Shown here piece by piece: positions 3,008 to 62,138 of a DNA stretch of 64,000 nt; position 1 is the first letter of the stretch; each line of letters opens with the position of its first letter. This DNA is from a virus. Where the stretch lies: the IMG/VR virus record IMGVR_UViG_3300044957_000346, positions 10,429-74,428 of that record. One strand, given 5' to 3'. The notes beneath the pieces were generated by a model, which saw nothing but the letters and a program-made list of their open reading frames with translations, was not told the DNA's origin and did not search any database. Position numbers and translations under genes: made by a program.

Positions 3008-3977
3008 ATGAAAATAATATATAAACAATATAAAATTTTATCGGATGTTAAAAATTATAAAGAATTAGAAAATTTTATTATATCAAATCATTTGTTGAAA
3101 AATTTCAAATCGTTCGATGTAAAATTTATTAATATTATTAATGTGGAAATTAACAAGACCGATAAAGTCTCTTTTAAAATATTTAAAAACAATTTTATTA
3201 AAAAATGGGTTAATTGTGGTACTTTTTTAAAAACTGAATATTGGACTCAGAGAGGTTGGACAATGGATGAAGCCATTGAAAATATTAAAAAATCCAATCT
3301 AATTATTCAAAAAAATCAAATTTAAAAAATAAACCGTGAGCACTTAATACTAGAATTGAATTTTGGTTAAAAAAAGGATATTCACAATCGGAAGCGGTTG
3401 AAAAATTGAGAGAAAGACAGTCGTGTTTTTCCAGAAATAAATTAATAAAGAAGTATGGCGAAGAAATTGGAAACAGAATAGTTGATGAACGAAATAAAAA
3501 ATGGGTTGATTCTTTGAAAAAGAATAATGATTGGGATGCATTATCAATTAAAAAAGGAAATAATGGTTTGAATAAATATAAAAGTCTAAATGATATGATC
3601 TCAGTATATGGAGAATTGGAAGGTAGAATAATATTTTCGTTAAGATATTGGGGGAAAAAAATTTCAACCGTCGAAGAATTTAATGAAATAGACTTATTTA
3701 AAAAAAGAGAACGAACATCATTATTTTACAATAAAAATTACAGATTTAAAATATTATCCAAACAAAATTTCAGTTGTGGGGAATGTGGGGAATGTGGGAT
3801 TTCAAATAAAGAACGTTTATTTCATCTACATCATATAGATTTCGATAAAAAAATGATAAAATTGACAACTTGATCTTTTTATGTCATAATTGTCATGCAA
3901 AAACTACAAATGCGAAGTTAGAAAAAAGAAAATGCTTAATAGAAAAGTTTAAAAAATTGAATGAAAAATACACTTAA
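3008..3977 (+). pseudogene. Free-standing HNH homing endonuclease, frameshifted
   Basis: Pieces join to CGEC...HLHHIDFDKK/NDKIDNLIFLCHNCHAK; repeated EYW/EFW..GxxxxEA motifs; frameshifts in A-runs; stop 3975-3977 overlaps the next ORF. Confidence 0.75.
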
Positions 3978-4830
3978 AAAGTTTCGTATTCCAATTGGGG
4001 AACTGTTCACATTTTTCAATTTAAATGGAAATGATTATGACATTCCAAAGAAAATTTCCAGATTATTAAAAATAAAAACAGCTGACGGAAAATATACCGA
4101 CATATTATATTTAATCAAAAAGTTTGGTAAAATTTATAATTATAAATTGGAAAATGGTATTGAAATAACTTGTGATGAAAACCATTTAGTTAAATCAAAC
4201 GGAAAATTTACTTTTATAAAAGACTGTACTTTGGTCGATACTATAAATGGGTCGTATAAAATTATAAATTCAACCTATCTAAAAGATGGTGATGTATATG
4301 ATATGTCATTAAACGATCCTCATGAATATATTACTTCATCTGGAATTATTTGTCATAATACAACCTTAGCTAAGATTATTGTAAAAAATATTCCATGTGA
4401 TTGTGTTTATATTAATGCTAGTGATACTAATGGTATTGAGATGGTAAGAACTAAGATTAAGGGATTTGCTGGATCCGCAGGTTTCCAACCATTAAAAGTG
4501 ATTATATTAGATGAATGTTTGGATGAAAATACTTTTGTTTATGTATTGAGAAAAGGTATTGAAACCAAAGTAAAAATAAAAGATGTCAATGAGAATGAAG
4601 ATTTGATAAAATCTTTCAATATTAAACAATCTAAAATAGAATGGAGAACATTTTATTTGTGGGACAAAGGTGAACAAGAATGTGTGAGAATTGAATTGGA
4701 AAACGGAGAATCCGTAATTTGTACATTAGATCATAAATGGTATGTTTTAAACGATAAAAACGAACCAATAAAAGTAAAAACAAAAGAATTAGTAGAAGGT
4801 AAATATGATTGCATTTTGTCTCCAGAATAA
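3961..4830 (+). CDS. gp44: Clamp loader piece 2: IntC1 (133 aa) + 52-aa extein (TTLAK...KVIILDE) + IntN2 (104 aa)
   Basis: ITCDENH block B, VYDMSL...IICHN|TT; INASD RFC motif; Walker B IILDE|CLDENT block A; CTLDHKW block B; stop. Confidence 0.9.
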   Translation: MKNTLKKFRIPIGELFTFFNLNGNDYDIPKKISRLLKIKTADGKYTDILYLIKKFGKIYNYKLENGIEITCDENHLVKSNGKFTFIKDCTLVDTINGSYKIINSTYLKDGDVYDMSLNDPHEYITSSGIICHNTTLAKIIVKNIPCDCVYINASDTNGIEMVRTKIKGFAGSAGFQPLKVIILDECLDENTFVYVLRKGIETKVKIKDVNENEDLIKSFNIKQSKIEWRTFYLWDKGEQECVRIELENGESVICTLDHKWYVLNDKNEPIKVKTKELVEGKYDCILSPE

Positions 4831-21176: not shown

Positions 21177-22997
21177 ATGTCGGATTTAAAAAATTTAGAT
21201 AAATTACCGGGTGGTGTAGGCGATGGTGTAGATGCCTCAAAATTCAATCCTATACAACTTTCTTTAGGAATACAAATTGAAATGGAGCATACAAATGATC
21301 CTGAAATAGCACAAGAAATCGCGTGCGATCATTTATATGAAGATCCCGCTTATTATACAAAATTGGTAAAAGCTGGTTTAGCCAAAGAATTTCAACCGTC
21401 ACACAACAGCGGTCTCGGTGATCCTGATTATTCAGCTAACGATGCTTCTAGAGTAGGCATCGACGGTTTAAAGAAAGGAAATATGGGTGGTAAAATTGGT
21501 AATACATCTAATGGTCAAGTTGACGGAAGAAATAGTGAACCTATTGTAAATAAAACCGTTGATATTGAATTAGACGAAAAGAAAGGTAAAAAGAAACCAA
21601 AACCAACCAATCCAACTTTATGGGCAAGAGCTAAAGCTGCTGCAAGAGCCAAATTTGATGTATATCCGTGCGTACCACTTGATAGTAAAGCTCTTACAAA
21701 AAATGGATGGAAAACATATGAAGAATTAACTATAGGCGAATTGATATTGACTTATAATATTAATAAAGATGAATTGGAATGGAAACCAATATTAAATCTT
21801 AATTTTTTTGAAAATGCAGAGTTAGTAAGAATGTATAAACCTACAGGTTTTTCAATAAAGTGTACACCTAATCATAAGTGGGTTGTACAAAGAGGAAATG
21901 ATTATTCTATTGTAGAATTGATAGAAACAAAAGATTTACCTAAAAGAGCTAGAATAATAGTATGTGCAGAGTTAAAAAATAATGACAAAATATTATTAGA
22001 AAATTTTTCTAAAACCGATAATTGGACTGAAAATATCATTAATATGAGTTCTGAACAAAGAAAGTCGTTTTTAGCAGCATCTATAATATATGATGGGTGG
22101 GATAAGGGATCTTCTTCAAAAATAGAAGGTCGTCATACTTTTGGATTTGTACAAAAAAATTCAGATCATTTGGATGCTGGTTTATTGGCAGCGTATTTAA
22201 GTGGATATTATGTATCTGTATGTGATAGAGAATCTATAACGTCTGCAAATTTTATAAGAAACAAAAAATTTCATTGTGTTCAAAATATAAAGTTTGAGAA
22301 AACAGAAAATGAGGATGTTTGGTGTCCGACTACCGAAAATAATACCTGGATAATGTACCAAAACGGATTAATTACAATTACAGGCAATTCGGCTTATGCT
22401 AATGGATGGGCCGCTAAGTGGTATAAAAAACACGGTGGTGGCTGGAGAATGAGTGAAGATGCCGAATCTAGTCCAGCCGCAGCTTATGATGGACCATTTC
22501 CATCACAAGTATCTCCAGATGGACAAGGCACTTATGGAAGTGGATATGATTTTGTAGGTTTTGCGGAAAATAAAGGTACAATTATGAAAAAAGAACAACT
22601 TAAAGAAGCTATCAAAAAATTAGTAAAACAAACATTGATTGAACAAGAACAAGACGATGTTGATGTAGCAGCCGAAGATGAAACTGTTACTATTACATTG
22701 GACAAACAACTTGCACAAAAATTGCATGATTTATTAATGACTCAACTTCAACCAGAAACTCCAGCAGGTCCAGAAGATGCAAACGATGTTGTGACTGCAG
22801 AAGATGACAAAGAAACAGTTGCTGCAAATATGAGTAGCGACCGACTACCACCAGGAGCTCTTCATAAACAACTTGGAGTTCCATCTGGAGAAAAAATACC
22901 AGCTGGTAAATTAGCAGATGCTGCTAATAAAGGCGGTAAACTTGGTAAGAGAGACAGATTAGCTCAAACATTGAGTAAGATTGCCAAGAAAAAGTAA
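21177..22997 (+). CDS. Modular putative virion protein (DUF5661-like N-terminus) containing an intein
   Basis: GIQIEMEHT...DHL.EDP.YY.KL; KFDVYP|intein|SAYANGW..KWYK..GGGW; C-terminal PGALHKQLGVP.GEKIP motif. Confidence 0.75.
   Translation: MSDLKNLDKLPGGVGDGVDASKFNPIQLSLGIQIEMEHTNDPEIAQEIACDHLYEDPAYYTKLVKAGLAKEFQPSHNSGLGDPDYSANDASRVGIDGLKKGNMGGKIGNTSNGQVDGRNSEPIVNKTVDIELDEKKGKKKPKPTNPTLWARAKAAARAKFDVYPCVPLDSKALTKNGWKTYEELTIGELILTYNINKDELEWKPILNLNFFENAELVRMYKPTGFSIKCTPNHKWVVQRGNDYSIVELIETKDLPKRARIIVCAELKNNDKILLENFSKTDNWTENIINMSSEQRKSFLAASIIYDGWDKGSSSKIEGRHTFGFVQKNSDHLDAGLLAAYLSGYYVSVCDRESITSANFIRNKKFHCVQNIKFEKTENEDVWCPTTENNTWIMYQNGLITITGNSAYANGWAAKWYKKHGGGWRMSEDAESSPAAAYDGPFPSQVSPDGQGTYGSGYDFVGFAENKGTIMKKEQLKEAIKKLVKQTLIEQEQDDVDVAAEDETVTITLDKQLAQKLHDLLMTQLQPETPAGPEDANDVVTAEDDKETVAANMSSDRLPPGALHKQLGVPSGEKIPAGKLADAANKGGKLGKRDRLAQTLSKIAKKK
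21669..22388 (+). mobile_element. Contiguous intein (240 aa) with degenerate LAGLIDADG-like segment
   Basis: CVPLDSKALTKNGWK block A, CTPNHKW block B, FLAASIIYDG, VWCPTTENNTW...ITGN|S. Confidence 0.9.
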
Positions 22998-27297: not shown

Positions 27298-29736
27298 TTA
27301 TCTTATTCCTTTTCTTTTTTTGTAATCGTCTAACGCGGCATTAAGTGCTTCCTGTGCTAACACACTACAGTGAATTTTAACTGGTGGAAGTCCACCCAAT
27401 GCTTCTACTATGTTATCATTGCTAAAATTTTTTTCAAGATCTTCTATTGTTCTACCCTTAATAAGTTCGGTTGCCACACTAGAAGCAGCTATAGCACTGC
27501 CACAGTTATGTGACATTGCTCTTAATACAAAGAAACAGTTTGAACCTTCATTTAATTCTAAATCATAAACAATATAATTGTCATTAGATTTTTCCAATCC
27601 TCTTAATTCATTAACATGTGTAATTTCTTTTTTTGATTTTAATGCAATTCCATTATGAATAAATCTTTGAATATCATTAATGCAAGTATCCAATTCATTT
27701 TTTTCAACAAACATCACATCAAAACCAGCAGATGAATAATCTTTTCTTTTTTGTATCATCCATCCTTGATTTTCACGATTTTGCATAAAATGAGGTAAAT
27801 TTTTAGTATAAACTTCAATTACTTTTTTTTGACCATTTACTTTAAAATCAGGATTAAATCTTTTTCCATCTGGTGTGTTTATCCAAAACTTATAATCTCC
27901 TACGTATCTTAAATCTAGATTTTCATTTACAAATTTATTAATAAACTTTTTTTCTAATAAAGTTGGTCTTTTCCACTGATCTTTTTTAATTCCCTCTTGC
28001 CAGTTTTTAACATATTCTGGATTTTTCCACATTTTTTTACAAGAAATGCTTGTTTTAAAACTAGAAATTTCAAGATTTTTTCTTTTGTATTTTTTTTGAT
28101 TCTGAGGCAATTCTTTTTGTTTCATCAATCCAAGATTATTTCTTTTTGAAATTTTTTTTGAATTGATATCTTTTAACCATTGTTGTTTTCTAACATTATT
28201 AATTGAACGGAGTTCTCGTTCTGTCATTTCCAATACTTCCATTCCAATTTCAAAATTTTCTGTTACTAATGGTCTATTATCTGCGCCCCACCAAACATGG
28301 TCTTTAGTGCAAATTATTTTTTTCCTTAATCCAAAATCTAATACACATAAATCATCGGAAGATACTTCTTTTTTAACAATATTTTTAACAGTATTTTTAA
28401 CTACAGAGCTTCCATTCCATGTCCAAATTTGATCACCTATTTTTAAGTTTTTAATGGATGTATATCCGTTTGGAGTAGCAATTGGACTATTACCACCTAA
28501 GCATCCAAATGTCTTGAATCGAGCATCAATAACTTTATTGGTTTGTTCATCGATTCTGAGACTAATCTTCATTATATCACCACAATTTTTAACGACTATT
28601 CCTTCTTCAACATTCAGGGTGATACGTGATAAAACAATATAATTATTATTTTCCTCAACTTGTAATGTATATGTTTGAATTTCTCCAATATATTCTCGTT
28701 TGATTATATTGTGATTATAATGTTTGCATTCATCAAAAAACTCAGTCCATGATGGAAATCTTGTTGATAAAGACTGTGGAATTTTATTTTGTTTGGCATA
28801 AGATCGCCAAAGATTAGCGGTCAACTTACCGTGTTGTTTATATAAATTATTTCCTATTTTGAATAAATCTTCATCCGAATATCCTAACCACTTCGGATTT
28901 TTATTTCTCGGCTTAGAAGCGAATTTATATTTCCATTCATCGGACGTTTTATGATAACAATTATTATTTCCTTTTTGTCTTAGAGATATTAACTTCCTCT
29001 GTTCTTCGGTGGCCAATTTTGAAAAATGATTTGCCAATTCACTTTTGTCATCAAACTTGTTAATGTTTTCCAATAAAATGTCTTTATTAATACATACATC
29101 AAATGTTTTTGGTCTATCCCAATTTGGGTTTGTCAACTTAGTATGATCTGATTTTGGTAATCCTTGCAAATTACTAATACAGTTATTTTGTTTGTTTTCA
29201 TCTATGTGATGTATATCATATCCTATAGTATTATGGTCAGGATTGTGAAATTTATAAATTTCAATGTGTTCTTTCCTATGTTTGGTTTTTCTAATTTCCC
29301 AATATCCATTTTTGATTATTTTTCGTTTGAATGGATAAATAGAATCATCACTTGTTAATAATTTATTTTCAACATATTGTTTTTTAGGACGAGTGAGAAA
29401 TTTATGATCTTCCGTACATGTTATTGTACCGCCATCATTTAATGTCAATTTATATACTTTTTTGACACCAGATACAACTCCTATAGCATTTTTTATTTCA
29501 AATAAATTTGTTTTAGTATTAAAGCTCCAAACAGGGGTTATTTTGTTTACTAAATTTTTAATAGGAGTATGTAAATTACCATCCGCTGTTGCTATTAAAG
29601 TATCACCATCAAAACATGCTGCAGCCCCTACTTCACCTATAGCGTTTGCTTCTTTTATGTCACCCATATTTCTGGGATTCATAAAATGATCCATTACAGT
29701 TTGATTATATAGAGTATAAGATTCATTCATACCCAT
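27298..29736 (-). CDS. iscU: Fe-S cluster scaffold IscU/NifU-N with two inteins (mature about 135 aa)
   Basis: Exteins join to VMDHFMNPRNMG...GAAA-CGDIMKI...FKTFG-CGSAIAASS...GGLPPVKIHCSVLA. Confidence 0.93.
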   Translation of the reverse strand: MGMNESYTLYNQTVMDHFMNPRNMGDIKEANAIGEVGAAACFDGDTLIATADGNLHTPIKNLVNKITPVWSFNTKTNLFEIKNAIGVVSGVKKVYKLTLNDGGTITCTEDHKFLTRPKKQYVENKLLTSDDSIYPFKRKIIKNGYWEIRKTKHRKEHIEIYKFHNPDHNTIGYDIHHIDENKQNNCISNLQGLPKSDHTKLTNPNWDRPKTFDVCINKDILLENINKFDDKSELANHFSKLATEEQRKLISLRQKGNNNCYHKTSDEWKYKFASKPRNKNPKWLGYSDEDLFKIGNNLYKQHGKLTANLWRSYAKQNKIPQSLSTRFPSWTEFFDECKHYNHNIIKREYIGEIQTYTLQVEENNNYIVLSRITLNVEEGIVVKNCGDIMKISLRIDEQTNKVIDARFKTFGCLGGNSPIATPNGYTSIKNLKIGDQIWTWNGSSVVKNTVKNIVKKEVSSDDLCVLDFGLRKKIICTKDHVWWGADNRPLVTENFEIGMEVLEMTERELRSINNVRKQQWLKDINSKKISKRNNLGLMKQKELPQNQKKYKRKNLEISSFKTSISCKKMWKNPEYVKNWQEGIKKDQWKRPTLLEKKFINKFVNENLDLRYVGDYKFWINTPDGKRFNPDFKVNGQKKVIEVYTKNLPHFMQNRENQGWMIQKRKDYSSAGFDVMFVEKNELDTCINDIQRFIHNGIALKSKKEITHVNELRGLEKSNDNYIVYDLELNEGSNCFFVLRAMSHNCGSAIAASSVATELIKGRTIEDLEKNFSNDNIVEALGGLPPVKIHCSVLAQEALNAALDDYKKRKGIR
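27505..28503 (-). mobile_element. IscU intein 2 (333 aa) with PD-(D/E)xK/Vsr-like domain
   Basis: CLGGNSPIATPNG, CTKDH, PT.LE...NPDF...VIEVY, VYDLEL...SHN|C. Confidence 0.9.
28585..29616 (-). mobile_element. IscU intein 1 (344 aa) with HNH domain
   Basis: CFDGDT block A, CTEDHKF block B, IHHIDENKQNNCISNL, TYTLQVE..NNY...VKN|C. Confidence 0.9.
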
Positions 29737-29738
29737 AA

Positions 29739-30845
29739 TTATATTCCTATTTGCTGTAAATCGTGAATTACCATTTTTTCTACAAGTTGTTTAAAATATG
29801 TCTTTGGAATCCAGTTTAATTCATTTCGTGCTTTTGTACTATCTCCGAGTAATAAATCTACTTCTGCGGGCCTGTAGAACTTGTGATTTATTTTAACTAA
29901 TACACTATTTGATGGATCGTATCTATTTGCATCTTTTACGCTAATACTAAATTCTGCATTTTCGGCTTCTCCGTGCCATATTCCATCAATGTCGGCAGCT
30001 TTAAAAGCTTCAAATACAAATTCTTCAATAGTATGAGTTTCATTGCTGGATAGTACATATTCTTTTGGTTCATTTTGATTTAACATTTTCCAAATACCGT
30101 CAACAAAATCTTCGGCATCACTCCAATCTCTGCTAGCTTTAACATTTCCCAGTTCAATACTGTCAAACGGTTTACCTTCTAAAAGCGCTTTTTTAATTCT
30201 AGCTACGCCCTTAGTGATTTTACGAGTTACAAACTCTTCACCTCTTCTAGTTCCTTCGTGATTGAATAATAAACCTTGTATTGCAAACAGATTGTAAGAT
30301 TCACGATATACTTTGACCAACTGTCGTGCTGCCGATTTGCTTGCGCCATATGGACTACGAGGTTTATATGGATGTTTTTCATCTTGCGGAACATATTCTA
30401 CGTCGCCGTACTCTTCACTACTTCCAGCATTATAAAATCTACAAGATGGCTTGTATTGTTTAATAGCCTGCAATATATGAATTATACCGCACGTATTACA
30501 TTCCCAGGTTTGTGATGGAAAATCCCAGGAAGATCCAACAAATGATTGCGCTGCTAAGTTTATAAAATAATCTGGCTTTAAATTTTCAACAATATTGTAT
30601 ATACTATGTGCATCGCTTAAATCAAAATTTACAAGATGAAATCTTGGATTGTTTTCTAAATGTACGATGTTGTCGTGGTTTTTGATGCTCAATCTTCTTG
30701 TTCCGCCAAAAATTATGTAATCGGTATTTTTTAGCAAATAATCAACCATGAAGCTACCATCTTGACCAGTCACTCCTGTAACGAATACTGTTTTTTTATC
30801 TTTGTTTAAAAACGAAACTGCATCTTTCACATTATATGTTTGCAT
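29739..30845 (-). CDS. gmd: GDP-mannose 4,6-dehydratase
   Basis: TGVTGQDGS, NLAAQSFV, SPYGASK, FNHE..RRGEEFVTRKI, RPAEV. Confidence 0.95.
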   Translation of the reverse strand: MQTYNVKDAVSFLNKDKKTVFVTGVTGQDGSFMVDYLLKNTDYIIFGGTRRLSIKNHDNIVHLENNPRFHLVNFDLSDAHSIYNIVENLKPDYFINLAAQSFVGSSWDFPSQTWECNTCGIIHILQAIKQYKPSCRFYNAGSSEEYGDVEYVPQDEKHPYKPRSPYGASKSAARQLVKVYRESYNLFAIQGLLFNHEGTRRGEEFVTRKITKGVARIKKALLEGKPFDSIELGNVKASRDWSDAEDFVDGIWKMLNQNEPKEYVLSSNETHTIEEFVFEAFKAADIDGIWHGEAENAEFSISVKDANRYDPSNSVLVKINHKFYRPAEVDLLLGDSTKARNELNWIPKTYFKQLVEKMVIHDLQQIGI

Positions 30846-31499: not shown

Positions 31500-32234
31500 T
31501 TAAAATCTTTGTTTTAATATCTTCTTTCCATCTTGTAGAATATCTGGATCAAATACCTTTGGACCTTTACTTATATAACCTTTACCACATGTAAATGTGC
31601 AGTTATAACAAAGTAACCTAATGTTTTCCAATTTATGGTTTTTGTTATTGCCATCTTCAAAATTTAATAATAATGGTATTTTACCATCCGTGAGTCTTCG
31701 TTCGTGATAACCACATTGTTCACACTCTGATTTTTTAATACCACTTCTTATGAGTTTATCCTTTAATCTGTGTATTGGGAAATCTGGATGTTTACCATCT
31801 AATATATCTTGTATTGGAAATTTACCTTTATTAGGATCTATAGGCCCCCTACAACATACACCTTTCGTAACAGGCCATCCTTTGGTTTTGTGTATGCCGT
31901 ATAGTTTTGCATATTTCTTGAATGTGATATAACTTATACCAAGTAGTTTTGCAGCTTTTTTTGCGGTAGGTGCTCTATCAATTGCTTCTTGAACTTCCGA
32001 TTGTAATATTGGTTTTTGGTTTCTACTGTGAGTTTTTCTTTTTGGATATAATTGTTCGGAAAATTGTTTTTCCAAATGAGGTATGGTGACTCCTTTTGAT
32101 TGAAGTATTTTAAATTCTTCTATCTCATTTCTTACATCTTGACCCAACTGACTTAAACTAAGTAATTCTTCAACTTTGCTTTTAAGCTGGTCAAGTTCTT
32201 GTAACTTTTTTTCTATCTGTGATTGATCCATCAT
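31500..32234 (-). CDS. HTH plus HNH-like Zn-binding protein
   Basis: AAKLLGISY.TFKKY; CEQCG...DGNNKNHKLENIRLLCYNC. Confidence 0.7.
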   Translation of the reverse strand: MMDQSQIEKKLQELDQLKSKVEELLSLSQLGQDVRNEIEEFKILQSKGVTIPHLEKQFSEQLYPKRKTHSRNQKPILQSEVQEAIDRAPTAKKAAKLLGISYITFKKYAKLYGIHKTKGWPVTKGVCCRGPIDPNKGKFPIQDILDGKHPDFPIHRLKDKLIRSGIKKSECEQCGYHERRLTDGKIPLLLNFEDGNNKNHKLENIRLLCYNCTFTCGKGYISKGPKVFDPDILQDGKKILKQRF

Positions 32235-53474: not shown

Positions 53475-54467
53475 ATGATTGAAAAATTGACTCAACTGCA
53501 ACAAGATAATTTGCCCGGATACGTTAAAAAATGGGTTGATATTGGAATCAATACCGATGAGATTGACTTTTTGGAATGCGTAAATCAAATCAAGAAAGCG
53601 TACGAAGTGGTTGGCCTTGCTTCTCCTACTTATTTTATCGGTCCAGTAAATAATCCGTATGAAGCCGCAGTAGCAGAATACATTATTGGCCAATTTAGCA
53701 AAGAAAAAAAACAGTTCAACAATCCGGCGCATTTGAATCAAATGGTCTTGGAAGAAATACAAAATCAAATTAAGAGTAGTAATACTGGGAATACAAAGAG
53801 TAAATTGTCCATTTCTAATCAGGCGTATGGGTTTCAAGAGTATTGGTTGAGTTACTATGATTTTTTTATAAATGAATGCAACCTTGCAATTAATCTCGTT
53901 AAACCGCTTATTGATCTTAGCAAAGTTTGCGGTTGGTGGACTCCGTTGAAGGACGTGGCTATCATTCAGCACCGGCCTCTTGAAATTCATCGTGACAACG
54001 CCGGTCGTTTACACAATGCTGATGGTGCTGCCGTCAGATATCTAGGTATTGGTGCTGATGTCTTTTTTATTCACGGTGTTCGCGTGACCAAAAAGATAAT
54101 TGACCGTGATTTCACTGCTGATGACATCGAAAAAGAATCTAATGCTGAAGTTCGGCGTGTGATGATTGAGATATATGGACAAGCCAACTTCTTGATTGAA
54201 AGTTGTGCAGTTAAAATTCATGAGGACGATTTTGGTGTATTATATCGAAAAGACTTACGCAATGACGAGCCATTGATGATGGTAAAAGTTGTTAATTCTA
54301 CTATTGAATCCGATGGAACATTCAAGGATTATTTTATTCGTGTTGACCCTAACGCTTATGGTGGAATCAAAACTGCACACGCTGCTGTAGCTTCGACATG
54401 GAGAAATAAGGATGGAAGCATGCTCTTTAATAAACCAGAAGACTATAATTGTGATATTCAAACTTAA
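53475..54467 (+). CDS. DUF6745-like protein
   Basis: MIEKLT..Q...W..IG, WLSYYDFF, GWW.P......RP..IHRD..GRLHN.DG.AV, HGVRV, NAE.RR, NST.E.DG..K.Y..RV.P...A..A.A.T. Confidence 0.75.
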   Translation: MIEKLTQLQQDNLPGYVKKWVDIGINTDEIDFLECVNQIKKAYEVVGLASPTYFIGPVNNPYEAAVAEYIIGQFSKEKKQFNNPAHLNQMVLEEIQNQIKSSNTGNTKSKLSISNQAYGFQEYWLSYYDFFINECNLAINLVKPLIDLSKVCGWWTPLKDVAIIQHRPLEIHRDNAGRLHNADGAAVRYLGIGADVFFIHGVRVTKKIIDRDFTADDIEKESNAEVRRVMIEIYGQANFLIESCAVKIHEDDFGVLYRKDLRNDEPLMMVKVVNSTIESDGTFKDYFIRVDPNAYGGIKTAHAAVASTWRNKDGSMLFNKPEDYNCDIQT

Positions 54468-54488
54468 TCAATAACTAACAAATCATAC

Positions 54489-54627
54489 AAGAGTGTACTG
54501 GACTTTTTTGGAAACCTACTACTCCGAAATATTTGAAAATAAAATAAATCGGTAGGGTTTTTATTACTATGTATATGCTGATAGTCAATAACGGCTATCA
54601 TAACACACACAAACACAAAAGGAAATA
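54489..54627 (+). repeat. 139-bp direct repeat A, copy 2
   Basis: Matches 53013-53151. Confidence 0.92.
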
Positions 54628-54629
54628 AT

Positions 54630-54956
54630 ATGTGCAAAAAATCAAATAAAAAATCGGTATATCGTCAAGGTGATGTCTTGATTCTGCCAATCAATGAAAT
54701 TCCTAACAATTTGAACCGAACAAAACGTGTGACTCTTGCTCTTGGAGAAGTCACCGGACATCATCATAGCATTTCAGATGGTGCTGTTGGATACGCGGAT
54801 GACTCAGATGCCTTGGCAGATTATTTTGAGGTGAATGATGAATCTGCCGATTTAACTCATCAAGAACACGATACTATCACTCTTCCAAAGGGTAAATACC
54901 GTAAAGTCATTCAAGTAGAATACACTCCAGAAGCTATCAGAAATGTTGCTGATTGA
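54630..54956 (+). CDS. His-rich RQGDV protein (usual neighbour of DUF6745-like genes)
   Basis: YRQGDV...LA.GEVTGHHH...L.HQEH..I.LP.G.Y....Q.EY.P...R.VAD. Confidence 0.7.
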   Translation: MCKKSNKKSVYRQGDVLILPINEIPNNLNRTKRVTLALGEVTGHHHSISDGAVGYADDSDALADYFEVNDESADLTHQEHDTITLPKGKYRKVIQVEYTPEAIRNVAD

Positions 54957-54993
54957 GTATGTATAAGTAATCAAAATAATGACAGACAGTTTT

Positions 54994-55019
54994 AAGGGAT
55001 TATATAAAAATCCCTTTTT
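54994..55019 (+). terminator. Terminator-like hairpin abutting the first array ATG
   Basis: AAGGGATT/AATCCCTT stem plus T-run, ATG at 55020. Confidence 0.55.
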
Positions 55020-56467
55020 ATGACATTATCCGAAGAACAAATTCAACCAGTTCGGAACCAAGTTTGTGACCAAGTTCGGATCCAAGTTCGGAACCAAGTT
55101 TGTGACCAAGTTTGTGACCAAGTTCGGACCCAAGTTCGGAACCACGTTTGGCCAAACTTGGTACCAAGTTTTGGACGAAGTTTGGGACCAAGTTTGGAAC
55201 CGAACCAAGTTCGGAACCAAATTTGGAACCAAGTTCAAGAATGAACTTATGACATTATCCGAAGAACAAATTCAACCAGTTCGGAACCAAGTTTTGGACG
55301 AAGTTTGGGACCAAGTTGGGAACCAAGTTCGGATCCAAGTTGGGAACCAAGTTTGGGACGAAGTTTTGGACGAAGTTTGGAACCAAGTTGGGAACCAAGA
55401 TCGGATCCAAGTTGGGAACCAAGTTTTGGACGAAGTTTGGTTCCAAATTTGGAACCAAATTTGGAACCAAGTTCAAGAATGAACTTATGACATTATCCGA
55501 AGAACAAATTCAACCAGTTCGGAACCAAGTTTTGGACGAAGTTTGTGACCAAGTTTGTGACCAAGTTCGGAACCAAGTTGGGGACCAAGTTGGGGACCAA
55601 GTTCGGAGCCAAGTTCGGAACCAAGTTCGGGGCCAAGTTCGGGGCCAAGTTCGGGGCCAAGTTCGGGGCCAAGTTCGGAACCAAGTTGAGAGCCAAGTTT
55701 GGAACCAAGTTTGGAGCCAAGTTCGGGGTCAAGTTCGGGGTCAAGTTCGGAACCACGTTGGGAACCAAGTTCAAGAATGAACTTATGACATTATCCGAAG
55801 AACAAATTCAACCAGTTCGGAACCAAGTTTTGGACGAAGTTTGGAACCAAGTTTTGGACGAAGTTCGGAACCAAGTTGGGAACCAAGTTGGGAACCAAGT
55901 TCGGGACCAAGTTTGGAGCCAAGTTTGGAGCCCAGTTCGGGACCAAGTTCGGAACCAAGTTCAAGAATGAACTTATGACATTATCCGAAGAACAAATTCA
56001 ACCAGTTCGGAACCAAGTTTTGGACGAAGTTTGGGACCAAGTTTGGAACCGAACCAAGTTCGGAACCAAATTTAGAACCAAGTTCAAGAATGAACTTATG
56101 ACATTATCCGAAGAACAAATTCAACCAGTTCGGAACCAAGTTTGGAGCCAAGTTCGGAACCAAGTTTGGAGCCAAGTTCGGGACCAAGTTTGGAACCAAG
56201 TTTGGAGCCAAGTTCAAGAATGAACTTATGACATTATCCGAAGAACAAATTCAACCAGTTCGGAACCAAGTTTTGGACGAAGTTTGGAACCAAGTTGGGA
56301 ACCAAGTTTGGAACCAAGTTGGGAACCAAGTTCGGAACCAAGTTGGGGACCAAGTTGGGAACCAAGTTCGGAACCAAGTTCGGAGCCAAGTTGAGAGCCA
56401 AGTTGGGAACCAAGTTGAGAGCCAAGTTGGGAACCAAGTTTGGAATGTAAAATCAATATTTTTATAA
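55020..56467 (+). repeat. Seven-unit array of mini-ORFs: constant junction plus variable 12-bp tandem repeats
   Basis: ATGACATTATCCGAAGAACAAATTCAACCAGTTCGGAACCAAGTT at 55020, 55249, 55487, 55785, 55975, 56098 and 56228; units 1-6 end CAAGTTCAAGAATGAACTT. Confidence 0.97.
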
Positions 56468-56499
56468 AAATCATACTAAACAAGATAAACATCATTAAA

Positions 56500-56568
56500 A
56501 AAACACTTGACCACTGTGACCACCCGTGTTATAGTGGTTTTGTTGTTGGCACACAAGTAAATCAAAAA
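56500..56568 (+). promoter_or_regulatory. Direct repeat B, copy 2: sigma70 promoter
   Basis: TTGACC(56507)-N17-TATAGT(56530). Confidence 0.85.
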
Positions 56569-56584
56569 TAAAAAACTAAAACAT

Positions 56585-56920
56585 ATGAAGAATAATTCAC
56601 TGGTTCAATTCGTTCGGGATCGTAAGGGTCAACCCCGTGGTATGGTAATTGCTACTGTGATTGATAATACTATCCGAGTTGGTTGGAGTTATACTAATAC
56701 AAAGGCTGGGGACCGATTCAATAAGAGTCGTGCATACCAAATTGCACTTGGTCGTGCTGATACTGGTCAGGGTAACAAGGTTATGACCCCTCGTTCGGTT
56801 TACAAGGTTATGAACAAACTTGCTGTTAGGGCTGAACGATATTATAAGAATGTGCCAATGGAGTCTGGTCATACGAGCTATGTTCCTGCTGACTTTTCTG
56901 AAGATATTCGTGGCGAATAA
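56585..56920 (+). CDS. Hypothetical early protein
   Basis: Follows promoter B; GWS......D.F.K......A..RA. Confidence 0.65.
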   Translation: MKNNSLVQFVRDRKGQPRGMVIATVIDNTIRVGWSYTNTKAGDRFNKSRAYQIALGRADTGQGNKVMTPRSVYKVMNKLAVRAERYYKNVPMESGHTSYVPADFSEDIRGE

Positions 56921-56945
56921 TTTAAATAATTAATAATTATATATC

Positions 56946-57272
56946 ATGGATCGTTCTAAACAAAAGGGTACATTTACTGGTTCAATTGATGAGCTATTGA
57001 AGCGTTGTGCGAGTATTGATGTAGATAAACTTTATGCTGACTGTGAAAAGAGAGAATGCATTGATGCATTGATGCGAGAGATGGAGTGTACTGAAGAAGA
57101 AGCGGACATTCTTTATAAAGAGATTGCTTTGACTGAAGTAAAAAACACCGTAGACGATCTTGTCAAGGAAGGTCTTGTTGAAATAATTGGGTTTACCGAA
57201 GATGGTGAACCGCTGTTTGATCTGACTGAACTTGGGAAAAAAGCTCAGAATCAAATTAAAAAGGGTAAGTAA
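56946..57272 (+). CDS. Hypothetical protein (winged-helix-like C-terminus)
   Basis: LVKEGLVE...LTELGK. Confidence 0.6.
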   Translation: MDRSKQKGTFTGSIDELLKRCASIDVDKLYADCEKRECIDALMREMECTEEEADILYKEIALTEVKNTVDDLVKEGLVEIIGFTEDGEPLFDLTELGKKAQNQIKKGK

Positions 57273-57287
57273 TAATTATTTTAAGTT

Positions 57288-57364
57288 GGCCTCGTAGCTC
57301 AATTGTATAGAGTACTCGGTTTCTACCCGAAGGGTTGCAGGTTAGAGTCCTGCCGGGGCTACCA
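57288..57364 (+). tRNA. tRNA-Arg(UCU)
   Basis: Cloverleaf GGCCTCG/CGGGGCT, anticodon loop TT-TCT-AC, T-stem GCAGG/CCTGC, encoded CCA. Confidence 0.9.
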
Positions 57365-57476
57365 CTTTTTTGGTAATTTTTCAAATACTAATAATATTTA
57401 TAAGTTACCTCAAGAACTTTTTAAAAGTTCTTGATCTTTGAAAATTGAATGTTAAGATAGTTAAGTAGTAAGCGAT

Positions 57477-57565
57477 TGTTCTTTACCGCATGGTGGGAGA
57501 AGCACTCCTCTGGAACATCTATGAATGGCGGAACTGCCTCGGCCTTTAACCGAAGGGGGTCACCA
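57477..57565 (+). ncRNA. Candidate structured RNA between the two tRNAs
   Basis: GC-rich island with stems TGTTCT/GGAACA, GGAG/CTCC, CCGC/GCGG, TCGG/CCGA, ending CACCA. Confidence 0.35.
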
Positions 57566-57568
57566 AAC

Positions 57569-57768
57569 AAAGAATACAGAAACAGTATATATAAATATGA
57601 TTTTGCTTGGTTAAAAGAAAAGATTGATGTAGAAATAGATGGTGGTACACATAAAACAGAAAAAGTTAAAAAAAAATAGATAGTAGAAAAGACGAATTTA
57701 GTAGACAAGATGGTTGGCTTGTAGTAAGATTTGATGCTGACCAAGACAGAAAAATAAAGTATAATTAA
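57569..57768 (+). pseudogene. DUF559/Vsr-like endonuclease remnant
   Basis: YKYDFAW...VEIDGGTH, shift in the A9 run, then D.RKD.....GW.VVRF. Confidence 0.7.
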
Positions 57769-57783
57769 TTTAAAATTTGTAAT

Positions 57784-57861
57784 GCGCTTGAAGCCACAGT
57801 AGACCGGCAGCAGACTTTTAATCTGTCAATGGTGAGGTTGCAACTACCTCCGGGCGCACCA
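57784..57861 (+). tRNA. tRNA-Lys(UUU), atypical
   Basis: GCGCTTG/CGGGCGC acceptor, GCAGA-CTTTTAA-TCTGT, GAGGT/ACCTC T-stem, CCA. Confidence 0.8.
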
Positions 57862-57941
57862 ATTTAAACTGGTAACAACAATAAACAATGAAATCATTTG
57901 GACCTACGAAAATGTCTTTGCCGGATAGTAGCATCATCTGA

Positions 57942-60275
57942 ATGAAAACTATTGCTTCAAAGAACACGGTAGTCAACAGTCCGAACCTCACTTCGTCTGG
58001 CTTCACGATTCGTCAAAAGAATCTTGCCAAGATCATCAATATTGTTGAGAATGACATCTATTCCGACAAGATTCTTGCAGTTATTCGTGAGTATAGCTGT
58101 AACGCCTATGATGCCAACGTGGAAGCTGGCAAGCGTGATGTGCCCATCGTGGTGAATATGCCTAGTCGGCTCAGTCCCGAGTTCAAAGTGCGTGACAACG
58201 GAAATGGATTGACCGAGCAGGAAATCCATGAGGTCTACACGTCCTATGGTGAATCTACCAAGGAAAACAGCGACGACTATATCGGTCAGCTTGGTATCGG
58301 CAGCAAAAGCGGTTTTGCTTATGGTGACAATTTTGTTGTAACCAGTTGGAAGAACGGCACCAAGACGGTTTACAACGCCGTCAAGGGCAGCGACGTGCGT
58401 GAAATGGTGAAGCTCTACAGCGAGCCTAGCAACGATCCGTCTGGTATCGAGGTCAGCATTCCCGTCAAGACTGGCGACGAAGCTGTTTTCAAGAGCAAGA
58501 GCATAAATTTCTTCAAGTATTGGCAGACCCAGCCTCACATTGTTGGTGTTTCCGAGCAGGAAACCAAGACCACCGATGTTGTGATCATTGACGGTGGTGA
58601 CTGGAAGGTGGTGGATACTGAGAACAGTTATGCCAGAAACCATCGGGCTATTGCCATCATGGGCAACATTTCGTATCCTATTCAGTGGGATTTGGTTATG
58701 GAAACGCTGAACAAGAACAATCGTTGCGACTTTCGCACCAACAGCATTGTGCGATTTATCACCAACAACAGCGTGGTGATTCGTTTCAAGATTGGTGAAA
58801 TTCAGATGGCTCCCAGCCGTGAGGCTTTGCAGTACACCGAGCATACTGTTAGCAATATCGTCAAGAAACTGGAGCAGATTTGCGGCGAGCTTGAAAACAT
58901 TTTGATTGCGCAGATAAATTCTGCCAAGACGTTGTGGGAATATAAGTGCAATATCAATTGTGTGTTCAGCCGTCAGGTCAAAGGAGACCGGTATCTGAGC
59001 AATTATGGCTTGCTGGAAAACCTTGAGCTTATCTTTGAGCTTGTGAAGCCCAAGCTGACGTTCAACGGTGTCAACGTGTTGAATCCAAATTATGATGGTA
59101 TGAACGAGTGGGATCGCAATCTAGGCAAGGTTAACATCGAAGAACGAGTCAAGAATTTCACCAAGGCGTTTGATCCGCTCGTTTATGCCTACAGCTTGAC
59201 CGTCCGCAACAAGCTCAACATTGAGACTGCCTCTCATACCAATCATCTTTTCAGGTTTACTGCGAGTGATCGTAACCAGATCATGATTATGGATATGGAC
59301 CGCAAAACGCACGTCAAGCAGTGCCTCAAGTGGTACATTGGCACCAACAACATTGGACGTTTGTATGTTCTGTACTTCGGCAATGATGCTGTCAAGACTT
59401 CGTTCTTTGCCAAGAATGATATGTCTGGTGCTACAATCGTGAAGTTCAGCGACGTGTTTGCCAAGTTCAAGCCGCTCATTCCTAAGCGTAAAAGCACTGG
59501 AAAGCTGGAGGATAATACCGTCAAGTGCGGTATTCTCAATCCCACCAACCGCTTTAGCTATTACAGTCGCAATACTCTTGACAAACTCTGGGAATATCGT
59601 TCCGAGGTGAACCTCAAGACTGAATCTGGATACTATTTGGATTACAGCAACAACGAGTCTGTTACCATCAATGGCGAGAAGATGGGTGTGTGTATGTTTA
59701 TGGGAGTTGTGAATGAACTGCATTACGAGCGTATTTTGAATCTGACGCACATCAACAAAGTGCATGGTTTTGGTACGACGATTATCAACGGCAAAAAGTT
59801 TGCCCAAAACAAGTCGAACTGGACCAACATTGTTGATTATATTGAGACTGAATTGAAGAATCTCAACAAGGATGAGTATGTATTTTCTGCACTTATGAAT
59901 GAGCGCATCGAGAAGTTCGATCTGAATCTGTTCTACATCCATAAGGGTGTGCTCAATCAGTTTGTGACTCGTCTGACTCATGACAATATGTTTTCTGATC
60001 TGTATAAGATAATGCCCGAGATTAGTGAGAGCACCAATGAAAAGATGAAACTTCTGGAGCGTATCAAGGTGTCGTGTGTTCAAACCTATCACCAAAAGGC
60101 TCTCAAGCAAAAAATTGAGAACGGTTTCAATTTGATTGCTGCCAAGTATCCCATGCTCAAGACTCTGATTATGTCGTTCAATTGGAACAATATCGACACC
60201 ATGCTTCAGGCGTCAGTCGTTGATGAGATTGTCAACTATATTAATTTTGTTGACAGCACCACCAAGAAGGTGTAA
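57942..60275 (+). CDS. rIIA: rIIA-like protein (N-terminal GHKL ATPase)
   Basis: IYSDKI.AVIRE..CNA.DA, RD.G.GL, YGESTK, GQLGIGSKS, PSREAL.Y. Confidence 0.9.
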   Translation: MKTIASKNTVVNSPNLTSSGFTIRQKNLAKIINIVENDIYSDKILAVIREYSCNAYDANVEAGKRDVPIVVNMPSRLSPEFKVRDNGNGLTEQEIHEVYTSYGESTKENSDDYIGQLGIGSKSGFAYGDNFVVTSWKNGTKTVYNAVKGSDVREMVKLYSEPSNDPSGIEVSIPVKTGDEAVFKSKSINFFKYWQTQPHIVGVSEQETKTTDVVIIDGGDWKVVDTENSYARNHRAIAIMGNISYPIQWDLVMETLNKNNRCDFRTNSIVRFITNNSVVIRFKIGEIQMAPSREALQYTEHTVSNIVKKLEQICGELENILIAQINSAKTLWEYKCNINCVFSRQVKGDRYLSNYGLLENLELIFELVKPKLTFNGVNVLNPNYDGMNEWDRNLGKVNIEERVKNFTKAFDPLVYAYSLTVRNKLNIETASHTNHLFRFTASDRNQIMIMDMDRKTHVKQCLKWYIGTNNIGRLYVLYFGNDAVKTSFFAKNDMSGATIVKFSDVFAKFKPLIPKRKSTGKLEDNTVKCGILNPTNRFSYYSRNTLDKLWEYRSEVNLKTESGYYLDYSNNESVTINGEKMGVCMFMGVVNELHYERILNLTHINKVHGFGTTIINGKKFAQNKSNWTNIVDYIETELKNLNKDEYVFSALMNERIEKFDLNLFYIHKGVLNQFVTRLTHDNMFSDLYKIMPEISESTNEKMKLLERIKVSCVQTYHQKALKQKIENGFNLIAAKYPMLKTLIMSFNWNNIDTMLQASVVDEIVNYINFVDSTTKKV

Positions 60276-60331
60276 GATTATAACAAGACGAATAAAGTAG
60301 GTCGGCTAAACAAAAAAACAAAAATAAACAT

Positions 60332-61432
60332 ATGATTAGTACCAGTATCAGCACCAACAGTATCACCGTGGTTGTTATTGACGACTCCGGCAACAAGGTT
60401 TACACGCTCGCTCGCAGCCATCCCAATTACGATGCTGTGCTTGAGGCGGTTCGCAACAACGACGAAGCCAGCATTCACAGTTTGTGCAACGTCGCCAAGT
60501 CGATTGAGAATTTTGCCGAGGGCAAGGTCCGAGTCGAGAACGGTCACGTTTATTATGGCAATCTGCTGCTTGAGGGAATTATTGTTGAGCGCATCCTTGG
60601 TTTCATCAAGGAAAAGCTTCCGGTCATTCCGTTGCTCAAGTTCATCAACAAGCTCTACGAGAATCCGTCGAGTCGTGCCACCAGCGAGCTTTACAAGTTC
60701 CTTGAGCACAAGAACATGCCTATCACTCCCGACGGTAACTTCCTTGCCTACAAGGGTGTGCAGAGCGATTACTTCAGCAAAACTGCTGGCAACATCGAAG
60801 TGCTTCAAGGCAAGGTGGTTGACGGCAAGATTTTCAACGGTGTCGGCGAGACCATCATTGTGAAGCGCAATCAGGTCTGTGACAACAAGGAAGTGGGTTG
60901 CAGCAAGGGTCTTCACGCCGGTAGCGTCGAGTATGCCACCGGTTTTGGTGCTGGTGGCAAGGTTGTGATTGTTGAAATCAACCCCGCCAATGTGGTCAGC
61001 ATTCCTACGGATTGTGAGTGTCAGAAGCTTCGTGCTTGCGCCTACAAGGTTGTGGGTGAATTTGAGGTTCCGCTCAACGACAATTATTGCGATGCTTATT
61101 GCGATGATGAAATCGACCGCGACGGTGAAGTGGACGGTGAAGTGGACGGTGAAGTGAACGGTGAAGTGAACGGTGAAGTGAACGGTGAAGTGAACGGTGA
61201 AGTGGACGGTGAAGTGGACGGTGAAGTCACTGTTGAGGGCGTGCTGGACTCAGCATATGCCGACGGATTTGACTCTGGTTATGACGACAGTATGAACCAC
61301 AATCGTTTCTGCAACCAAGAGGTTGATCTGGAGTCTTTTGTTGAAGGTGTTGTCACCAAAGACGAGTATACCGATGCCTGGAAGAAAGGTTATCAGGCCG
61401 GCTACGATGACGGTGTGGTTGATCGAGACTAA
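60332..61432 (+). CDS. rIIB: rIIB-like protein
   Basis: ENPS....ELY.FL...PIT.DG.FLAYK.V, CS.GLH.G, V.INPA.VVSIP.D..KLR.C.Y.V. Confidence 0.9.
   Translation: MISTSISTNSITVVVIDDSGNKVYTLARSHPNYDAVLEAVRNNDEASIHSLCNVAKSIENFAEGKVRVENGHVYYGNLLLEGIIVERILGFIKEKLPVIPLLKFINKLYENPSSRATSELYKFLEHKNMPITPDGNFLAYKGVQSDYFSKTAGNIEVLQGKVVDGKIFNGVGETIIVKRNQVCDNKEVGCSKGLHAGSVEYATGFGAGGKVVIVEINPANVVSIPTDCECQKLRACAYKVVGEFEVPLNDNYCDAYCDDEIDRDGEVDGEVDGEVNGEVNGEVNGEVNGEVDGEVDGEVTVEGVLDSAYADGFDSGYDDSMNHNRFCNQEVDLESFVEGVVTKDEYTDAWKKGYQAGYDDGVVDRD
61121..61228 (+). repeat. 9 x 12-bp coding tandem repeat (D/N)GEV in the rIIB tail
   Basis: (G/A)ACGGTGAAGTG x9. Confidence 0.95.
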
Positions 61433-61453
61433 CCCATAAAATATAAAATATAA

Positions 61454-61495
61454 CAAATCACAAAGCGAAGCAGCAATGCTTCGCTTTGTGATTTG
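61454..61495 (+). terminator. 19-bp perfect hairpin with GCAA loop after rIIB
   Basis: CAAATCACAAAGCGAAGCA-GCAA-TGCTTCGCTTTGTGATTTG. Confidence 0.75.
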
Positions 61496-61505
61496 AAGTA
61501 GCCAT

Positions 61506-61694
61506 ATGAAATACAGACATATTATAAAAATACACACGGTGCTTGATTACGGCGAACTTGAGAATGTAATGAATGACTATGGAAAAGAAGGTATACGTGT
61601 CATAAAGGCAGAATTTATGTGCGATTCATTTGAAAAAGGTAGACCCATGAAAAAATTTGTATTATACTTGGAGAAGAAGTTAAAATCTAAATAA
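61506..61694 (+). CDS. Small hypothetical protein
   Basis: ATG ORF. Confidence 0.5.
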   Translation: MKYRHIIKIHTVLDYGELENVMNDYGKEGIRVIKAEFMCDSFEKGRPMKKFVLYLEKKLKSK

Positions 61695-61877
61695 TAGTTA
61701 AGTTATGAAACAAAAGTATTTAAGAACACAATTCCGTGGTTAATTATTGTATTTTTTTATATCTATCGTTGGCTTGTGCTATATTTGCTATAAAACATCC
61801 GTGGCCAACTGATATGGAACGATTTATCCATATAGGAGATGCTTTAACATTTAAAAAGATATCATACAAAGAAATGC

Positions 61878-62138
61878 GTGGCGATTATGAAAAATAATAT
61901 AATGGAAATTATTGAAGACAACGAATTACTTACAATTGATGGTTATGATGATTGTATTGTAGGTATTGGTTATAGAGCCGGCACTCAGTCAACATATGTT
62001 GTATATAATACTCAGAAGATTATCAATAAACTGATGAAAGATGGTATGTCATATCACGAAGCTGTGGATTTTCATGAATTCAATCAAGCTTGTGCTTGGG
62101 TAGGTGACAAAACTCCTGGGTTTGTAGACACACATTAA
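61878..62138 (+). CDS. Conserved phage hypothetical protein
   Basis: DGYDDCIVG...VVY...GM...EA..F.EFN...AWVG..TP.F. Confidence 0.7.
   Translation: MAIMKNNIMEIIEDNELLTIDGYDDCIVGIGYRAGTQSTYVVYNTQKIINKLMKDGMSYHEAVDFHEFNQACAWVGDKTPGFVDTH

Follow-up and report, generated by a model that had tools for sequence, protein, structure and literature searches.

How a protein of 135 residues comes to occupy an open reading frame (ORF) of 812 codons, and whether the two inteins that fill most of this frame are selfish elements, a regulatory device or the sign of a dying gene, are the questions raised by positions 27298..29736 (minus strand) of a viral DNA. The stretch analysed, referred to here as the window, measures 64,000 nucleotides and comes from an IMG/VR viral record of 74 kb (IMGVR_UViG_3300044957_000346) with an estimated completeness of 21%. 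ORF reading, combined with Pfam and NCBIfam matches, identifies the product (812 residues plus stop) as a precursor of the iron-sulfur (Fe-S) cluster assembly protein IscU. We consider it highly probable (about 0.85) that the locus is a working auxiliary iscU gene that was invaded independently by two unrelated selfish homing inteins.

Anatomy of the IscU precursor

The precursor is divided into five parts, all encoded on the minus strand. The N-extein (residues 1-40; 29617..29736), which covers NifU_N profile positions 2-38, ends in GEVGAAA and is followed by intein 1 (residues 41-384; 28585..29616), which runs from CFDGDTL to VVKN and is inserted at IscU site a, immediately before the equivalent of Cys37. 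The middle extein (residues 385-411; 28504..28584; profile positions 31-61) extends from CGD to KTFG and includes the equivalents of Cys37 and Asp39. Intein 2 (residues 412-744; 27505..28503), from CLGGNSP to MSHN, lies at site b, before the equivalent of Cys63. The C-extein (residues 745-812 plus stop; 27298..27504), delimited by Pfam and junction reading, opens with this cysteine in the sequence CGS and contains LPPVK and the equivalents of His105 and Cys106. The sequence-only reading of this DNA had described an IscU of 135 residues with an LPPVK motif, interrupted at AAA/CGD and TFG/CGS by inteins of 344 and 333 residues that lie 27 residues apart and make up about 83% of the ORF. Junction reading bears out this description, with exteins totalling 135 residues, a middle extein of 27 residues and inteins accounting for 677 of the 812 residues (83%).

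The assignment of the exteins is supported by the Pfam family NifU_N (PF01592), which matches the precursor with an E-value of 1.7e-38 and 132 bits (cut-off 22); the match is broken into three stretches, which together span profile positions 2-124. The other Pfam matches are to Intein_splicing, HNH_3 (residues 157-199) and Hint_2 (residues 412-460), and NCBIfam adds intein_Nterm and intein_Cterm matches. Against the NCBIfam equivalogs, which see the precursor as three separate pieces, the values are 119.8 versus 192.4 bits for TIGR01999 (iscU) and 142.6 versus 187.9 bits for TIGR03419 (NifU_clost). A homologue profile matches residues 1-63 and 63-127 of Escherichia coli IscU (2l4x) on either side of intein 2. 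In bacterial consensus numbering, the +1 residues of the two inteins are Cys37 and Cys63; the consensus and the 2l4x match thus agree with the earlier proposal that both +1 nucleophiles are among the three cluster-binding cysteines of IscU.

The role of Cys37, Asp39, Cys63, His105 and Cys106 in cluster binding is well established for IscU. The exteins keep all three ligand cysteines (37, 63 and 106) together with Asp39, His105 and the sequence LPPVK-I-H-C. The ratio of nonsynonymous to synonymous substitutions (dN/dS) of the exteins ranges from 0.03 to 0.12 against five intein-less relatives, in comparisons where dS is saturated, and the exteins are under strong purifying selection. Because of this selection, the host gene is expected to work, and hence the inteins to splice.

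Homing inteins usually insert before a functional cysteine, since they depend on a +1 nucleophile as well as on a DNA target that is conserved; the codons for Cys37 and Cys63 would meet both needs. In the scenario that we favor, the phage would carry iscU as an auxiliary gene that the two homing inteins entered separately. Each intein would excise post-translationally by the standard Cys1/Cys+1 pathway, and ligation of the exteins would yield the 135-residue IscU, which would act as an Fe-S assembly scaffold during infection. In mixed infections, the HNH nuclease of intein 1 and the Vsr-like nuclease of intein 2 would cut the intein-less alleles of related phages, and repair would copy the corresponding intein into the cleaved gene.

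Intein occupancy and recent transfer at the syntenic locus

Comparison of the syntenic iscU locus in related phages reveals four occupancy states: neither intein, intein 2 only, intein 1 only, and both. The contigs L003-L009 encode a plain IscU of 134-138 residues with neither intein. In these contigs the uninterrupted sites are precise and the sequence on both sides is almost the same, as illustrated at the position of the window intein 2, where AAGACATTTGGA is directly followed by TGTGGTAGTGC. Intein 2 alone is found in L001 and L002, intein 1 alone in L020 and P0007, and the window carries both.

The clearest trace of mobility comes from the comparison of the window with L001. Intein 2 is 92.9% identical at the nucleotide level in the two sequences, whereas the flanking genes are 72-77% identical, and the synonymous difference (pS) is 0.14 in intein 2 but 0.83 in the adjoining exteins. 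From these contrasts it follows that intein 2 moved between the window and L001 lineages long after they diverged, and that it did so without intein 1. The suggestion of the earlier reading that this auxiliary gene is conserved enough among related phages to support homing is thereby upheld: iscU is conserved at a syntenic position, the presence or absence of an intein is precise at both sites, and intein 2 shows a transfer signal.

Intein 2 and its Vsr-like nuclease

Intein 2 has a canonical set of splicing residues: besides block F VYDL, these are Cys1, the block B T-x-x-H (here T-K-D-H), a terminal His-Asn and a +1 Cys, which are conserved in 60 homologues. In a structure model built from these 60 homologues (mean predicted local distance difference test score of 89), the splicing domain matches solved HINT domains with Z-scores of 15-19 and a Foldseek E-value of 5e-6.

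The nuclease insert of intein 2 gave no Pfam or PHROG match, and its identity came from structure. Residues 178-286 of the intein (27646..27972, minus strand), delimited by the model and by conservation among the 60 homologues, find their best match in the catalytic domain of I-Bth0305I (3r3p_B), with a Z-score of 10.9, a root-mean-square deviation of 3.4 Å over 94 of 98 residues, and 21% identity. Lower-scoring matches of the same region are to the DUF559-like structure 3hrl (Z 9.0) and to the Vsr enzyme (1cw0; Z 8.6), and a second model built from the insert only again retrieves 3r3p as the top structural match. Across 60 site-b inteins that share 31-90% identity, P218-D219-F220 never varies, and E184, K227 and E230-V231-Y232 show almost no variation. 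R243 is also conserved, no conserved histidine is seen in the core, and the conserved pattern reads E...PD...ExY, with no obvious EDxHD motif. The modelled fold identifies the domain as a PD-(D/E)xK-like nuclease of the Vsr type, and the conservation of its residues points to a nuclease under selection. Intein 2 reached this lineage recently and is probably still mobile.

The Vsr-like "EDxHD" family of homing endonucleases, of which I-Bth0305I is the prototype, accompanies introns and inteins in genes of phages and marine metagenomes (PMC3239194). The I-Bth0305I catalytic domain is the best structural match of the intein 2 nuclease; however, the identity is low, and the conserved E184, P218-D219, E230 and Y232 do not form an obvious EDxHD motif.

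Three database proteins of 312-334 residues (P0103, P0113 and P0149) share 31-38% identity with intein 2 along almost all of it. Exteins, Cys1 and the terminal His-Asn are absent from these proteins, which may be intein-derived, stand-alone combinations of a HINT domain and a nuclease, as is yeast HO.

Intein 1 and its HNH nuclease

The nuclease of intein 1 is of a different type. Its HNH_3 motif (precursor residues 157-199; 29140..29268, minus strand) scores 27.8-29.9 bits in Pfam, against a cut-off of 24.8, so that the HNH versus PD-(D/E)xK-like distinction drawn earlier between the two inteins agrees with this above-cut-off match and with the Vsr-type fold of the intein 2 model. Taken alone, intein 1 matches Intein_splicing with 37.5 bits (cut-off 35.8), and it scores 52 bits with intein_Nterm and 18.1 bits with intein_Cterm in NCBIfam. 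Cys1, the block B T-x-x-H, the terminal Asn and the +1 Cys are all present. Across 12 IscU site-a relatives, C1, T68, H71 and N344 are invariant, as are H137 and N149 of the HNH region, where H158 is nearly invariant. IscU site-a inteins form a group of their own, with 35-83% identity to intein 1; the identity falls to 25-30% for P0109 and P0099, two further IscU inteins at this site. Outside IscU, the closest relatives of intein 1 are the HNH inteins of ribonucleotide reductase (RNR) large subunits. The phage members of this set align with it over nearly the full length (26-34% identity) and share the same HNH_3 module, but they reside in another host gene and at another insertion site.

Several observations count against a working gene with two mobile inteins, and most of them concern intein 1. 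It lacks the penultimate His as well as the block-F Asp and His, as it ends in V-V-K-N and its block F reads T-Y-T-L...N-N-N-Y. Downstream of the HNH motif, moreover, it is short of some 20 conserved residues that are kept in every other full-length site-a member, among them L020, P0007 and P0085; relative to these, this corresponds to an in-frame deletion of 60 nucleotides at ~29015..29030 (minus strand), near 29020. In addition, intein 1 shows no transfer signal, its nucleotide identity to the L020 copy (78-81%) being the same as that of the flanks. Because of the missing signal and the deletion, the mobility of intein 1 appears doubtful. As regards the host function, no IscS, IscA-type carrier or radical SAM gene was found in the 74-kb record, which represents ~21% of the genome. 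Finally, splicing, nuclease activity and the scaffold function of the phage IscU are properties that we infer from sequence, and efficient splicing is less certain for intein 1, from which canonical residues are missing.

These features of intein 1 could be taken to mean that at least one of the two inteins no longer splices, that no functional IscU is made and that the ORF is heading for loss. The penultimate Lys, the block F without Asp and His, and the internal deletion of 20 residues all speak in this direction. Yet 10 of the 12 site-a inteins have Lys or Arg at the penultimate position, and the relatives of intein 1 share its lack of the usual block-F residues, which argues that the unusual end and block F of intein 1 are a family trait and not a lesion; the non-canonical residues are common to relatives at 25-83% identity. 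Inteins without a penultimate His are known to splice. The deletion, for its part, sits in the nuclease/DNA-binding insert, outside the splicing domain. The segment that it removes is nameless in Pfam, and its absence suggests that the nuclease or DNA-binding module of intein 1 may be starting to decay. Furthermore, a frame of 812 open codons in a genome of 29% GC would arise by chance with a probability of ~4e-35, as estimated from the base composition of the strand; the exteins are under strong purifying selection; and neither intein has lost Cys1, T-x-x-H, the terminal Asn or Cys+1. Given the open frame, the selection on the exteins and the intact splice residues, we reject the idea of a dead or crippled gene, which we regard as the least probable of the explanations discussed here.

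Under the preferred reading of two independent homing invasions, intein 1 would then be the older resident of this lineage. A clade with four occupancy states at one locus, in which intein 2 is seen soon after a transfer and intein 1 is perhaps decaying, lends itself to work on how homing runs through its cycle and on intein nucleases of the Vsr type.

Known intein systems and conditional splicing

The position of both inteins before metal ligands brings to mind systems in which splicing responds to the state of the cell. The intein of Mycobacterium tuberculosis SufB (Pps1) has been studied in mycobacteria for its stress- and metal-sensitive splicing (PMC8891592). As in phage IscU, the intein lies in a core Fe-S cluster assembly protein and relies on Cys chemistry. 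However, SufB belongs to the SUF system, carries a single intein and is encoded by a cellular genome, and the likeness is one of host function, with no claim of homology between the inteins. In M. smegmatis, the two inteins of DnaB (DnaBi1 and DnaBi2) respond differently to stressors (PMC6195587). DnaB thus resembles phage IscU in having two inteins in one protein, but its host protein is a replicative helicase, whereas the two phage inteins are crowded into a 135-residue host, 27 residues apart, and represent 83% of the precursor.

By analogy, the two Cys1/Cys+1 inteins of phage IscU could form an adaptive double gate, sensitive to redox state and metals, that would leave IscU active only in a reducing, metal-appropriate infected cell. 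The use of Cys at positions 1 and +1 by both inteins, the identity of the +1 residues as metal ligands, the mycobacterial SufB and DnaB precedents, and the persistence of intein-bearing IscU alleles across many lineages are all compatible with this idea. If it were true, the release of viral IscU would require an infected cell that is in a reducing state and contains no inhibitory metals. The analysed sequences, however, contain no feature specific to sensing, and close relatives at the syntenic locus do without inteins or with either one alone, as expected of a selfish element that the phage can spare. A homing cycle, and not a maintained regulator, is likewise what one would read from the deletion in intein 1 and from the recent acquisition of intein 2 by horizontal transfer. 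In addition, nearly any Cys-dependent intein is inhibited in vitro by oxidants, Zn or Cu, and sensitivity alone is no proof of adaptation. We therefore consider an adaptive gate unlikely. A more elaborate form of the idea, in which some phage lineages would have kept both inteins as a two-input gate on Fe-S assembly, with each intein sensing a different signal as in mycobacterial DnaB, seems slightly less likely still. Whatever the outcome, a 135-residue host in which both +1 nucleophiles are metal ligands offers a handy test case for the debated notion of inteins as sensors.

Distribution of intein-bearing IscU

The sequence-only reading had called for a database search for intein-containing IscU as a check on novelty, and such proteins turn out not to be rare. 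With the C-extein alone as query, a search restricted to proteins of 446-1421 residues and clustered at 90% identity returned at least 84 clusters of over-long IscU. By their junction motifs, ~69 of these are occupied at site b only, 3 at site a only and 11 at both. One of the two-intein proteins, P0065 (843 residues), combines the same two intein families, each at 37% identity, with a bacterial-type extein. Among GenBank-derived records, carriers of intein-bearing IscU include genomes of Candidatus Achromatium, Thiotrichaceae, Alphaproteobacteria, Polyangiaceae, Myxococcales and Crocinitomicaceae.

A literature search found no publication on IscU or NifU inteins. They appear to be undescribed in print yet abundant in databases, where annotation pipelines leave intein-bearing IscU as "hypothetical" or as an over-long NifU-like protein. 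What the present locus offers, with its two-intein state, its phage host, its Vsr-like nuclease and a transfer caught soon after the event, is a useful model system and not a new principle.

Two further IMG/VR viral contigs (L022 and L023) likewise carry a double-intein IscU, and the occurrence of the a+b combination in these contigs and in P0065 shows that it arose or spread more than once. In three contigs of giant-virus metagenome-assembled genomes from IMG/VR (L030, L034 and L036; match near 3820-4750), an ISCU of the mitochondrial type, whose N-terminus resembles a presequence, contains a site-a mini-intein of ~160 residues that is related to intein 1 and has lost the nuclease. This ISCU with its intein is either a giant-virus gene product or a sign of eukaryotic DNA in the bins.

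Gene context and source of the locus

Besides many genes for sugar-nucleotide enzymes and glycosyltransferases, the window encodes rIIA, a helicase of the SNF2 type and a lysozyme-bearing protein, and its rIIA is only ~31% identical to that of KVP40-like phages. On the basis of this gene content and of the low rIIA identity, the source is an uncultivated, distant, low-GC T4-like phage. A megablast search with the 20 kb around iscU against 50,697 phage records gave no match. By tblastn, intein matches (mainly in RNR genes) were separate from IscU matches, and no isolate phage with an intein-bearing IscU was found. The gene iscU is a known auxiliary gene of uncultivated T4-like marine phages (Nishimura et al. 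2017, PMC5332604), which resemble the present phage in being T4-like and in carrying iscU as an Fe-S-related auxiliary gene; inteins are unmentioned in that work. The search of the 74-kb record for Fe-S partner genes produced a single weak match, to a DegT aminotransferase.

The start codon of the iscU ORF abuts the stop codon of the upstream GDP-mannose 4,6-dehydratase gene (29739-30845), and local GC around the ORF is 26-36%. The gene order in the window, which reads helicase, orf111, HNH, orf151, GDP-mannose dehydratase, IscU, orf83, NUDIX, glycosyltransferase and lysozyme protein, is largely kept around iscU in ten related viral contigs, with single genes absent in some; the NUDIX match, for instance, was not found in L008 or L020 in this comparison.

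The HNH endonuclease ORF of this series (31500-32234, minus strand; phrog_14736) has a counterpart at the equivalent place in each of the ten related contigs, with 47-86% identity, and such positional stability is unusual for a free-standing nuclease of the homing type. A second intein-bearing ORF lies at 21177-22997 (plus strand) and matches DUF5661 and Pfam Intein_splicing. The two halves of its protein match contiguously in L005-L009, which are thus intein-less at this locus and reveal a further presence/absence polymorphism in the clade. In the rIIA region of the window (54000-62000), GC rises from ~0.30 to 0.39-0.45, which may mark a block of different origin or one under stronger constraint.

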